The position numbers were made by a program, and so were the translations under genes. The notes beneath the pieces were generated by a model that ran no database searches, was not told where the DNA came from, and saw nothing but the letters and a program-made list of their open reading frames with translations. 29,365 nucleotides of DNA from a virus (Duplodnaviria; Heunggongvirae; Uroviricota; Caudoviricetes). This document shows, in pieces, positions 4,403-23,808 of this stretch (positions within the stretch are counted from its first letter, which is position 1; each line of letters opens with the position of its first letter). The DNA is taken from IMG/VR virus record IMGVR_UViG_2693429774_000014, one strand, 5' to 3'.

Positions 4403-4455
4403 GGGCGGCAGAGCAGTCACGGAGTAAAACTGATACCGCCAAACGTCACCAGAAA
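4403..4455 (-). ncRNA. dicF: DicF small regulatory RNA (53 nt processed form; intrinsic-terminator U-tract extends to about 4398)
   Basis: Minus-strand sequence UUUCUGGUGACGUUUGGCGGUAUCAGUUUUACUCCGUGACUGCUCUGCCGCCC followed by UUUUU matches DicF as I recall it. Lies between ydfC and dicB as in the K-12 dicB operon. Confidence 0.7.
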
Positions 4456-19525: not shown

Positions 19526-20059
19526 ATGAACGAAAAAATAAAATACGGCCTGTCGGCTGCCGTTCTGGCGCTGATTGGTGCAGGTGCTTCTGCGCCTGAA
19601 ATCCTCGACCAGTTTCTGGATGAAAAGGAAGGTAACCACACCACGGCATACCGTGATGGTGCGGGGATCTGGACCATCTGCCGTGGTGCCATTCTGGTGG
19701 ATGGTAAGCCTGTTATTCCTGGCATGAAGCTGTCAAAGGAAAAATGCGACCGGGTTAATGCCATCGAACGTGACAAGGCGCTGGCATGGGTGGAGAAAAA
19801 CATCCGGGTGCCGCTGACCGAACCCCAGAAAGCGGGGATCGCGTCATTCTGTCCGTACAACATTGGCCCCGGTAAGTGCTTCCCGTCGACGTTTTATAAA
19901 CGAATTAATGCAGGCGATCGAAAAGGTGCCTGTGAGGCGATTCGCTGGTGGATTAAGGACGGTGGCAGAGACTGCCGTATCCGTTCAAATAATTGCTACG
20001 GTCAGGTCTCACGGCGTGACCAGGAGAGCGCGCTGGCGTGCTGGGACATCGACAGATAG
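19526..20059 (+). CDS. R: Endolysin, T4-lysozyme-family (GH24) with N-terminal signal-anchor (SAR-type, as in phage 21 R)
   Basis: N-terminal hydrophobic YGLSAAVLALIGAGASAP, then catalytic-triad spacing E-x8-D-x5-T (LDEKEGNHTTAYRDGAGIWT). Pairs with a pinholin-type holin. Confidence 0.85.
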   Translation: MNEKIKYGLSAAVLALIGAGASAPEILDQFLDEKEGNHTTAYRDGAGIWTICRGAILVDGKPVIPGMKLSKEKCDRVNAIERDKALAWVEKNIRVPLTEPQKAGIASFCPYNIGPGKCFPSTFYKRINAGDRKGACEAIRWWIKDGGRDCRIRSNNCYGQVSRRDQESALACWDIDR

Positions 20060-20279: not shown

Positions 20280-20393
20280 ATGAAAGGCATTGAAGTGGAG
20301 ACGCCAGCCAGTCTGGATTTAACAAGAGCGGCAGCTTTTGCCATTCGTATTGTGGCCATTGCTGTTCTGGTCTGGGCAATCCGTTGGTGGTGA
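20280..20393 (+). CDS. Possible small hydrophobic protein (37 aa) between endolysin and Rz
   Basis: MKGIEVETPASLDLTRAAAFAIRIVAIAVLVWAIRWW. GAGG about 9 nt upstream of ATG; stop is 1 nt before the Rz ATG. Not in the track (under 60 aa). Confidence 0.3.
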   Translation: MKGIEVETPASLDLTRAAAFAIRIVAIAVLVWAIRWW

Positions 20394-20394
20394 T

Positions 20395-20862
20395 ATGAAC
20401 CGTGTTCTGTGCGTGGTTATCATTGTCCTGCTGGTGGCCTGTGGTGCGCTTAGTCTGGGGCTGAATCATTACCGTGATCACGCCATCATCTACAAAGAGC
20501 AGCGCGATAAAAAAGCCAGTGAGCTGGAGCTGGCGAACGCGACAATTACTGATATGCAGATACGCCAGCGTGATGTCGCTGCACTTGATGCCAGATACTC
20601 GAGGGAATTAGCCGATGCGAGAGCTGAAAATGAAACTCTGCGTGCTGATGTTGCCGCTGGTCGTAAGCGCCTGCGGATCAACGCCACCTGCTCCGGTACC
20701 GTGCGTGAAGCCACCGGCACCTCCGGCGTGGATAATGCAACCGGCCCCCGACTGGCAGACACCGCTGAACGGGATTATTTCATCCTCAGAGAACGGCTGA
20801 TGGCAATGCAGAAGCAACTGGAAGGAGCACAGGAATATATCCGTACCCAGTGTATACCGTGA
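20395..20862 (+). CDS. Rz: Rz-like i-spanin (155 aa from MNRVL; track ORF starts at 20338)
   Basis: N-terminal TM (VLCVVIIVLLVACGALSL) then a charged coiled-coil-like periplasmic domain. Contains an embedded +1-frame lipoprotein ORF (Rz1). Confidence 0.7.
   Translation: MNRVLCVVIIVLLVACGALSLGLNHYRDHAIIYKEQRDKKASELELANATITDMQIRQRDVAALDARYSRELADARAENETLRADVAAGRKRLRINATCSGTVREATGTSGVDNATGPRLADTAERDYFILRERLMAMQKQLEGAQEYIRTQCIP
20630..20800 (+). CDS. Rz1: Rz1-like o-spanin lipoprotein (56 aa) embedded in Rz in the +1 frame
   Basis: MKLCVLMLPLVVSACGSTPPAPVPCVKPPAPPAW...: lipobox-like VSAC and a proline-rich mature region. GAGAG ribosome-binding site. Confidence 0.7.
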   Translation: MKLCVLMLPLVVSACGSTPPAPVPCVKPPAPPAWIMQPAPDWQTPLNGIISSSENG

Positions 20863-21327
20863 TGTTTTGTTATGAAGGTGTTACTGGTAACGTTAAGGTA
20901 ATTTAACAAAGAGTCAGTTCCGGACTTTATAGTGTGCTCAGTTCATGGCCAAAAACGATTTCTGTGATAAATATTTTGAATATTATTTACAGGTAAATGG
21001 AGTGGGGCGCATGGATAGAAATATTACAATAGAGTATGAAGTATATGCCCGTATTGTATGGGCAGAGAAGGCAAAAACACGGTAATTCCGTGTGTTGCCA
21101 TGATACCTGATTGGCAGAATAGTTGTTTGGTTTTGAGTATATAGTCAGCGTTTTTTGTTCAGTAATTGCCCCCTCAAAAAATAATAAAATAAGGTGATTA
21201 TTTTTGTTTATTATTTAGTTTTTTTTGTGTGTTATTTTATTGTTTTTGCGTGGTTTGTTTTTTATTGTTATTTCATTAAGGGAAGGTAAATTCAGGATGG
21301 CAGTCTGTAGATAATCGGAGGTCACTT

Positions 21328-21642
21328 ATGCTACATGATCACGTGGCAGAATGTCTGGAGAAAAAAGGACTGTACCGGAGAGCAGCTGAACGATGGGCAA
21401 AAGTGATGGTACAGCTAAGTGATGACCAGAAAAGAAAAGTGGCGGCACAGAAACGAGCAGAGTGTTTGCGTAAGGCGCGCCGGACTCCGGTTTCACCGGT
21501 GAACCTGACCGAAATAAAACAAGCGGTCAACAGACTACATTCTGAGTTGGGAATGGGATTTGAAGAGCGGCGGGTATTCCGACGATATAAAGGGACAGGA
21601 GAACAGAATACGTCCGGAAACGCGCGGTCAAAAAAATGCTAA
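21328..21642 (+). CDS. PerC-family (Pch-like) transcriptional regulator candidate (104 aa) behind a long AT-rich leader
   Basis: N-terminal LEKKGLYRRAAERW resembles the PerC-family signature I recall (G-aromatic-RRA..RW). Perfect GGAGG ribosome-binding site. About 460 bp of AT-rich, T-tract-rich upstream DNA. Confidence 0.55.
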   Translation: MLHDHVAECLEKKGLYRRAAERWAKVMVQLSDDQKRKVAAQKRAECLRKARRTPVSPVNLTEIKQAVNRLHSELGMGFEERRVFRRYKGTGEQNTSGNARSKKC

Positions 21643-21723
21643 AAAATATCTGAGAGAGTTATTGCCTGTTACCATAAGAAAAAGCGACTTTAGTGGTCGC
21701 TTTTTGTGTCATATATAAGTCGT

Positions 21724-21948
21724 TTAAGTAAACCTGTCTGAACAGGTGCTCTGGTCGTGTTTGTCTTTGTTGGGTACAAATTGAGAATATTTTTCATTAA
21801 TTAATCTTCTTCTGCAGGCTTCAATAACCCACGCTGAAAAATTACCTGAACCTTTCAGGTCAAGAGCGATGTTAATTTGTTCAATTATCTGGTTTGGAAA
21901 TCGGATGTTGCGGGTTGTTGTTCTGCGGGTTCTGTTCTTTGATGACAT
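21724..21948 (-). CDS. Small lambda right-end ORF homolog (YlcI/DUF3950-like, 74 aa)
   Basis: MSSKNRTRRTTTRNIRFPNQIIEQINIALDLKGSGNFSAWVIEACRRRL resembles the small ORF near the right end of lambda as I recall it; lies just cos-proximal, as in lambda. Confidence 0.5.
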   Translation of the reverse strand: MSSKNRTRRTTTRNIRFPNQIIEQINIALDLKGSGNFSAWVIEACRRRLINEKYSQFVPNKDKHDQSTCSDRFT

Positions 21949-22350: not shown

Positions 22351-23808
22351 GTGGCTACGCAGCCCGCCTATGCGCGGGTTTTCTTTTGCGCGCTCGGGCG
22401 CGAGATGGGGGCAGCAAGTCTTTCGGTACCACAACAGCAGGTACAGTTTGATGCTCCCGGAATGCTGGCTGAAACGGACGAGTACATGGCCGGAGGTAAA
22501 CGACCGGCCCGTGTTTACAGGGTGGTGAACGGTATTGCTGTACTGCCGGTGACCGGCACGCTGGTGCACCGGCTGGGTGGTATGCGGCCATTTTCCGGAA
22601 TGACAGGCTATGACGGTATTGTCGCCTGTCTTCGGCAGGCAATGGCGGATAGCCAGGTGCGGGGCGTACTGCTGGACATTGACAGTCCGGGCGGGCAGGC
22701 CGCCGGCGCGTTTGACTGCGCTGACATGATTTACCGCCTCCGTCAGCAGAAGCCGGTCTGGGCACTGTGCAATGACACGGCCTGTTCTGCAGCCATGCTG
22801 CTGGCGTCGGCCTGCTCCCGACGGCTGGTTACCCAGACATCCCGTATCGGCTCCATTGGCGTGATGATGAGCCATGTCAGCTATGCCGGTCATCTGGCGC
22901 AGGCCGGTGTGGATATCACGCTGATTTACTCAGGGACGCACAAGGTGGATGGCAATCAGTTTGAAGCCTTACCGGCAGAGGTTCGCCAGGACATGCAGCA
23001 GCGCATTGATGCGGCGCGCCGGATGTTTGCCGAAAAAGTGGCGATGTTTACCGGTCTGTCTGTTGATGCCGTCACGGGAACAGAGGCCGCCGTTTTTGAA
23101 GGTCAGTACGGCATTGATGCCGGGCTGGCGGATGAATTAGTCAATGCGTCGGATGCCATCAGTGTGATGGCCACGGCGCTGAACAGTAATGTCAGAGGAG
23201 GCACTATGCCGCAATTAACTGCAACGGAAGCCGCCGCGCAGGAGAACCAGCGAGTGATGGGGATCCTGACATGCCAGGAAGCGAAAGGACGTGAACAGCT
23301 TGCCACGATGCTGGCAGGACAACAGGGCATGAGCGTTGAACAGGCCCGGGCGATTCTGGCCGCGGCGGCACCGCAGCAGCCGGTGGCATCCACGCAGAGT
23401 GAAGCCGATCGCATTATGGCGTGTGAAGAAGCGAACGGTCGTGAACAACTGGCGGCAACGCTGGCGGCGATGCCGGAGATGACGGTGGAAAAAGCCCGCC
23501 CGATCCTGGCTGCTTCACCGCAGGCGGATGCCGGACCCTCACTCCGTGATCAGATCATGGCACTGGATGAGGCAAAAGGGGCTGAGGCGCAGGCTGAACA
23601 GCTGGCTGCCTGCCCGGGAATGACTGTGGAGAGCGCCCGGGCTGTGCTGGCTGCGGGATCAGGTAAGGCAGAACCGGTCTCTGCATCCACAACCGCCCTG
23701 TTTGAACGCATCATGGCGAACCATTCACCGGCTGCGGTACAGGGTGGCGTGCCACAGACGTCAGCAGACGGTGATGCGGACGTGAAAATGCTCATGGCCA
23801 TGCCATGA
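22351..23808 (+). CDS. C: Lambda gpC-like head maturation protease/scaffold (S49 family), N-terminally remodelled (GTG start, 485 aa)
   Basis: QPAYARVFFCALG...GIAVLPVTGTL...LLDIDSPGG...KPVWALCND...RRLVTQTSRIGSIGVMM...ITLIYSGTHKVDGN is strongly similar to lambda gpC as I recall it. GAGGTGAGGAG ribosome-binding site precedes the GTG. The first roughly 25 residues of lambda C have no counterpart. Confidence 0.85.
   Translation: MATQPAYARVFFCALGREMGAASLSVPQQQVQFDAPGMLAETDEYMAGGKRPARVYRVVNGIAVLPVTGTLVHRLGGMRPFSGMTGYDGIVACLRQAMADSQVRGVLLDIDSPGGQAAGAFDCADMIYRLRQQKPVWALCNDTACSAAMLLASACSRRLVTQTSRIGSIGVMMSHVSYAGHLAQAGVDITLIYSGTHKVDGNQFEALPAEVRQDMQQRIDAARRMFAEKVAMFTGLSVDAVTGTEAAVFEGQYGIDAGLADELVNASDAISVMATALNSNVRGGTMPQLTATEAAAQENQRVMGILTCQEAKGREQLATMLAGQQGMSVEQARAILAAAAPQQPVASTQSEADRIMACEEANGREQLAATLAAMPEMTVEKARPILAASPQADAGPSLRDQIMALDEAKGAEAQAEQLAACPGMTVESARAVLAAGSGKAEPVSASTTALFERIMANHSPAAVQGGVPQTSADGDADVKMLMAMP

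Follow-up and report, generated by a model that had tools for sequence, protein, structure and literature searches.

The 29,365-nt stretch of phage DNA analyzed here, referred to below as the window, contains a short open reading frame behind its lysis genes that is preceded by a long and strongly AT-rich sequence. The sequence-only reading had taken the frame for a PerC/Pch-family regulator carried as a prophage moron, and the sequence before it for a leader with phased T-tracts, suggestive of curved DNA silenced by nucleoid proteins. The locus thus raises the question of which regulator is encoded, and of how the AT-rich sequence might contribute to its control.

The ATG-initiated frame (positions 21328-21642, plus strand) encodes a protein of 104 aa, of which residues 1-89 align with positions 1-89 of the 90 positions of the Pfam PerC profile (PF06069). 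This match is full-length and lies far above the gathering score (E 3.8e-44; 149.3 bits, cut-off 22.6); PHROG families labeled as transcriptional activators are matched as well. For comparison within the family we used the three group-1 pch loci of Escherichia coli O157:H7 Sakai, located in the prophages Sp4 (pchA), Sp11 (pchB), and Sp14 (pchC). The predicted protein is 100% identical to Sakai PchA (ECs_1091), 99% identical to PchB, with V6L as the sole change, and 98% identical to PchC, with the changes V6L and V58M. At the nucleotide level, positions 16, 172, and 183 of the coding sequence are the only sites that separate pchA, pchB, and pchC (PMC5931665), and the window carries the pchA-type bases G, G, and C at these positions. 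The assignment to the PerC/Pch family is thereby borne out. We consider it very likely that the frame is an intact allele of pchA, encoding a small, basic and predicted-helical PerC protein, and that it is a moron carried among the late genes of a lambdoid prophage. The gene and its AT-rich control region are a feature that is already known, and more specific than merely PerC-like.

The motif GLYRRAAERW, from which the family had been recognized without any database search, corresponds to residues 14-23 of the protein. When the window protein is aligned with its relatives from phage Pollock, where it is a PerC-superfamily protein, and from Salmonella phage Fels-1, at an overall identity of 32-41%, the residues L15, R18, A20, R22, and W23 are invariant, and the PerC core motif L-[YW]-x-R-x-A-x-R-W is present in the window protein. 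Judged by this alignment, the motif is a genuine signature of the PerC family, as had been supposed. A sequence search of the PDB with PchA yielded no relative, even at E-values up to 10. Single-sequence AlphaFold2 modeling predicts four helices and a disordered C-terminus; at a pLDDT of 51 and a pTM of 0.33 this model is too poor to be of use for a fold search. Residues 7-47 of PchA also gave a sub-threshold match to ANR_neg_reg (NCBIfam NF033650), the family of Aar-type negative regulators of AraC. With 13.6 bits (E 0.046), short of the 32 bits required, PchA does not qualify as a member; a remote kinship of these small regulators with PerC, though conceivable, is unsupported and is mentioned as a lead only.

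The genes on either side place pchA within the late region. Upstream lie a phage lysozyme gene (19526-20059) and, following it, the Rz lysis gene (20338-20862; Pfam Phage_lysis, E 1.2e-48), such that position 20863 is the first base past the Rz stop codon. Downstream, a gene of the YlcI/YnfO (DUF3950) family is located at 21724-21948 on the minus strand, convergent to pchA (Pfam PF13132, E 1.3e-17; NCBIfam NF041551), and is followed by a cos/terminase remnant. The order Rz, pch, YlcI/YnfO on the minus strand and terminase is common to strain PE164 and the Sakai prophages Sp4, Sp11, and Sp14. Morons of lambdoid prophages typically occupy this very place, behind the lysis genes and ahead of those for packaging. 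A terminator of its own downstream of the gene, a trait of morons, is present as well: at 21679-21706 we found a bidirectional intrinsic terminator that is common to pchA (plus strand) and the YlcI/YnfO gene (minus strand), with the hairpin GCGACU/GGUCGC set between an A-run and a T-run (dG -14.8 on the plus and -12.3 on the minus strand, z -2.9 and -3.0, respectively). That the gene is a prophage-borne regulatory moron, as had been claimed, is supported by where it lies in the prophage and by the published activation of LEE1/ler (PMC4764244).

As pchA lies directly downstream of the lysis genes on the same strand, most of its expression could come from the phage late operon, of which it would form the last part, with Q-antiterminated transcription running from pR' across holin, lysozyme, and Rz, in which case the AT-rich stretch would be an untranslated spacer. 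We did not detect a terminator-like site on the plus strand between the Rz stop codon and the pchA start codon, so that read-through from the late operon is physically possible, and group-1 pch transcripts increase after SOS induction, those of pchC about 8-fold (PMC5931665). In the same study, however, pchA itself was unresponsive (log2 fold change -0.33), and LrhA, NtrC, and butyrate regulate both pchA and pchB in conditions that do not induce the prophage (PMC4456613; PMC13012123; PMC10714755). Moreover, the Sakai copy of pchA is functional even though IS629 and an inversion of the lysis-pch block cut it off from the upstream late-region genes, namely the Q antiterminator, the tRNAs and ECs_1088. 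Expression mainly from the late operon is therefore unlikely in our view. An independent, LrhA-dependent promoter of pchA is implied by the literature, in which LrhA-dependent regulation of pchA and pchB has been described (PMC4456613; PMC13012123). A single weak match to a sigma-70-like promoter (TTGCCA-17-AATAGT, 21095-21123) was identified on the plus strand, and sigma-70-like matches are not enriched in the upstream region (2 seen vs. 3.5 expected by chance).

The prophage that carries pchA in the window is heavily deleted, with the terminase, the portal and many head and tail genes gone. Compared to the intact prophage of PE164, a first deletion of approximately 4.2 kb at 22361/22362 joins the very beginning of the small terminase gene to the S49 prohead protease, and removes the terminase, head-tail joining and portal genes. 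A second deletion, of about 6.9 kb, joins head genes to tail-tip genes at about 25162. The 22361/22362 junction was absent from 5426 complete E. coli genomes and from the GTDB representatives in a scan for exact matches. The window further contains a match to the STnc100 sRNA family just upstream of a 616-aa SASA-esterase-like ORF (16024-16196), the sok RNA of a hok/sok module (11534-11708) and three tRNA genes (15004-15250), all on the plus strand and all typical of the lambdoid prophages of EHEC. In Rfam they score exactly as their counterparts in Sakai Sp14 do, which points to a mosaic prophage with an Sp14-like middle and a pch gene of the pchA type.

The gap between Rz and pchA (20863-21327, plus strand) constitutes the upstream control region of pchA, as promoter and/or 5' leader. 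It spans 465 bp, in keeping with the roughly 460 bp estimated before, and has a GC content of 33.5% and a T content of 38%. Within it, positions 21150-21300 reach 25.2% GC and 51% T, and a GC content this low is found in 0.3% of the 151-bp stretches of the window. The stretch of this length with the lowest GC content in the whole 29 kb starts at 21123 (23.8%, compared to a mean of 48.3%). The AT content is thus far above background, with 24-25% GC against a window mean of 48%. Tracts of at least four bases are frequent: seven T-tracts and two A-tracts are found within 21131-21263.

To evaluate the spacing of these tracts, the Fourier power of the AA/TT and TT indicators was compared to that of 1000 dinucleotide-preserving shuffles. 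At periods of 10-11 bp, the AA/TT power showed no excess over the shuffles (p 0.25-0.98), and it was approximately zero at 10.5 bp. A peak was observed at about 11.5 bp, with a single-period p of about 0.004 and a family-wise p over 9-14 bp of 0.058 for the window and 0.034 for the Sakai pchA sequence, the spectra of which are alike. The upstream region of pchC has the 11.5-bp peak as well, and that of pchB lacks it (p 0.49). The regularity of the T-tracts is marginal, off the helical repeat, and lost in the functional paralog pchB. With the tracts out of register with the helical repeat, planar curvature is not predicted by simple phasing. Of the leader envisaged in the sequence-only reading, the length, the AT-richness, and the T-tracts hold, whereas the phasing does not, and the curvature that was to follow from it fails in the test for helical phasing.

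This result also bears on the proposal that the T-tract DNA upstream of pchA is curved through helically phased tracts and silenced in the manner of H-NS targets, such that pchA itself would be xenogeneically silenced. No general feature predicts H-NS binding better than low GC content. The upstream region of pchA has the lowest GC content in the window, its composition is kept in all three paralogs despite a sequence divergence of up to 29%, and the upstream regions of pchA and pchC share the marginal periodicity of 11.5 bp. Against the proposal stand the lack of excess power at 10-11 bp and the absence of the 11.5-bp signal upstream of pchB, which is functional and regulated by LrhA (PMC13012123). 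In addition, we found no statement on H-NS binding at the pch loci in the accessible text of the H-NS ChIP study (PMC4764244). We lean against this proposal, although it could hold; silencing by H-NS of the region upstream of pchA is plausible from its composition alone.

Another possibility is that the leader encodes a second product, either a protein of 46 aa (20945-21085, plus strand) or a small RNA on the minus strand that would end at a hairpin at 21093-21077. The 46-aa frame has a full-length match to phrog_2157 (E 2.3e-37). The hairpin at 21070-21099 is predicted to be stable (dG -17.4, z -2.8), has a T-tail on the minus strand alone, and is preceded in that direction by a weak promoter-like site (21210-21181). 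The frame, however, lacks a Shine-Dalgarno sequence, the substitutions between its copies at pchA, pchB, and pchC are almost all non-synonymous in the alignment, and in the phage collection it occurs solely beside pch, in one O157-derived fragment. For the small RNA, no Rfam family was found within 20800-21760 at the gathering score or at E-values up to 10, promoter-like matches in the upstream region are below chance expectation, and at pchC the stem of the hairpin is weaker. A second product is therefore very unlikely. With no Shine-Dalgarno sequence and mostly non-synonymous substitutions, the 46-aa frame was rejected as a gene and is probably over-called. The hairpin itself, GGCAA..ACACGG-TAATT-CCGTGT..TTGCC, could end a leftward transcript from the AT-rich region.

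Comparison of the window with the three Sakai loci points to a control region in which composition is more constant than sequence. In the distal part of the upstream region (20863-21165), the window is 99.0, 98.0, and 97.0% identical to Sakai pchA, pchB, and pchC, respectively, and in the coding sequence (21328-21642) these values are 100, 99.7, and 99.0%. The 37 bp adjoining the start codon are 94.6-100% identical to the Sakai paralogs. Between these segments lies a T-rich core block (21166-21290, plus strand; GC 23%, T 52%), in which the identity is 98.4% to pchA, 71.4% to pchB, and 88.9% to pchC. The block thus forms a hot spot of divergence between otherwise near-identical pch copies. Nevertheless, it has a GC content of 21-23% and a T content of 52-56% in all copies. 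Like the coding sequence, the upstream DNA of the window is of the pchA type, being 98-100% identical to that of Sakai pchA.

Since the composition of the block is preserved and its sequence is not, it is compatible with either of two roles: an effect exerted through AT-richness, or a tuning of the paralogs to different settings. The title of Honda et al. (2009), as cited in later work (PMC13012123; PMC4456613), refers to "differential regulation" of pchA and pchB by LrhA, and we infer that the divergence of the T-rich block may accord with this. In such a scheme the block would act by its composition, by binding nucleoid or regulatory proteins or as an element upstream of the promoter, rather than by a fixed sequence or phased curvature.

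Control of pchA is also exerted on its mRNA. In reviews of Melson and Kendall (2019), the pchA mRNA is described as self-inhibited by an anti-Shine-Dalgarno sequence inside the coding region; DicF, an Hfq-dependent sRNA that is stabilized at low oxygen, pairs within the coding sequence and thereby frees the ribosome-binding site (PMC7769764; PMC7873438; PMC9438474; PMC13138055). In the window, the Shine-Dalgarno sequence GGAGG is located at 21317-21321 on the plus strand, 6 nt before the ATG. RNAfold predicts it to be mostly paired in every folding context tried. In short contexts the probability of being unpaired is 0.05-0.28 for four of its five bases; in the full mRNA it is 0.06-0.19 for G21317, G21318, and G21321. 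G21320 is predicted to be largely unpaired, as is A21319 in the long context. The predicted partner shifts with the folding context. In short contexts, both the minimum free energy structure and the pair probabilities indicate a candidate anti-Shine-Dalgarno sequence in codons 8-11 (21351-21358), and in the full mRNA 21317-21328 is predicted to pair with 21416-21427. The z-score of the pchA fold is only -1.2. The candidate long-range partner and an overlapping complement to DicF together occupy 21416-21433.

The gene for DicF is present in the window as well, at 4403-4454 on the minus strand (Rfam RF00039, 76.7 bits; gathering score 48). It is located on the same prophage as pchA, about 17 kb away and on the opposite strand. 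Copies of dicF are also found in Sakai Sp4 (pchA) and Sp11 (pchB) (L002:25733-25784 and L003:46582-46633); in the Sp14 (pchC) locus, where dicB is annotated, no match to DicF was found. Nucleotides 1-8 of DicF have a perfect 8-nt complement at 21425-21432 in pchA, which is not statistically distinctive. The best duplex with a 5' seed has an energy of -15.4 kcal/mol (p about 0.09 against shuffles). Seed-restricted duplexes between DicF and pchA were in general no better than those of shuffles (p 0.09 and 0.45), the best of them lie outside 21425-21432, and the candidate sites disagree. Unrestricted predictions gave unrealistic full-length pairings and were discarded. The published mechanism is consistent with the sequence of the window, and our own folds agree with it only in outline. 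A newer prophage sRNA, HnrS, was rejected as a candidate at the pchA locus, as it has been reported in Sp9, Sp10, and Sp12, which are outside the pch prophages.

We determined how widely the locus occurs. Of 5426 complete E. coli genomes, 673 harbor the 858-bp segment that covers the upstream region, the gene and its terminator (20863-21720), at an identity of 99-100%; the median copy number in these genomes is 3. The segment is annotated as "PerC family transcriptional regulator," and the strains include O157:H7, O55:H7, O145:H28, O26:H11, and O111. The window itself consists entirely of prophage DNA; in the complete genomes, ler, counted separately, is present in 697 of 5426, compared to 673 for group-1 pch, in the same serotypes. 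Group-1 pch is strikingly uniform: 687 of the 692 matching records, from O157, O26, O111, and O145, are at least 99% identical over the coding sequence. Among deposited phage genomes it is nearly absent, with matches in just two unannotated fragments derived from O157. The relatives in Pollock and Fels-1 are distant PerC homologs from the phage collection.

The role of pchA in virulence has been established since 2004. Activation of LEE1/ler has been published for a protein identical to that of the window (PMC4764244; PMC5931665). Pch activates the LEE1 promoter only when this is repressed by H-NS, StpA, Hha, and YdgT; it lowers the occupancy by H-NS, alters the nucleoprotein complex at LEE1 and enhances the Ler-dependent activation of other LEE operons, and was accordingly termed an "anti-silencing regulator" by the authors (PMC4764244). 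Expression of the LEE requires pchA and pchB, which are under positive control of LrhA, with butyrate/Lrp and NtrC/sigma-S as further inputs (PMC4456613; PMC13012123; PMC10714755). As pchA is a master input to the LEE, and with it to type III secretion and adherence of EHEC, its presence marks the prophage remnant in the window as relevant to virulence.

From these data a working scheme can be proposed for the locus. In line with its published function, PchA would bind AT-rich virulence loci, among them the promoter region of LEE1 (ler), where it would relieve silencing by H-NS. The 465-bp AT-rich stretch would serve as the control region of pchA itself, the published transcriptional inputs being LrhA, Lrp/butyrate, and NtrC/sigma-S. 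The transcript would be kept translationally off by pairing of the Shine-Dalgarno sequence to a sequence within the coding region, until DicF, dependent on Hfq and stabilized at low oxygen, pairs in the coding sequence and releases the ribosome-binding site. To what was known of pchA, our analysis makes modest additions: the T-rich hot spot of divergence with its kept composition, the unphased T-tracts, and the presence of dicF on the same heavily deleted prophage. More speculatively, the T-rich block could be a tuner, constrained in composition and free in sequence, that sets the LrhA or nucleoid-protein control of each paralog, and dicF and pchA together could form a self-contained, phage-borne virulence switch that responds to low oxygen. 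This extended proposal is put forward tentatively, and is rather less probable than not to hold as a whole; if true, the switch has been retained despite the loss of packaging and structural genes from the prophage.

Among known systems, PchA of Sakai Sp4 is the closest. The two loci are alike in the protein (100% identity), the diagnostic bases of the coding sequence, the upstream 465 bp (98-100%), the position after Rz, and the downstream terminator. In Sakai Sp4, the block of lysis genes and pchA is inverted next to IS629, whereas in the window it is collinear with the late operon, and the carrier prophage of the window differs from Sp4 in being without terminase, portal, and many head and tail genes.

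PerC of EPEC belongs to the same family (PF06069), and both proteins activate LEE1/ler (PMC4764244; PMC4456613). Their settings differ: perC is the last gene of the perABC operon on the pEAF plasmid and is controlled by PerA, whereas pchA in the window is a prophage moron with an AT-rich control region of its own. LEE expression in EPEC is, moreover, less dependent on PerC (PMC4764244). PchD and PchE of EHEC and YfdN of K-12, which represent groups 2 and 3, are likewise prophage-borne members of the PerC family (PMC6265319; PMC5931665). Unlike PchA, however, they hardly activate ler, and the window protein falls outside these two groups; PchE represses curli and flagella (PMC6265319; PMC5931665). 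PchA and the members of the ANR family have their small size in common, and helices are predicted for PchA, but its match to this family remains below the threshold.

Ler is commonly assigned to the H-NS family. Its mode of action, like that of other counter-silencers of H-NS, is similar to that of PchA, the de-repression of AT-rich virulence promoters bound by H-NS (PMC4764244). PchA itself belongs to the PerC family and has no relative in the PDB by sequence, and its likeness to Ler lies in the mode of action.
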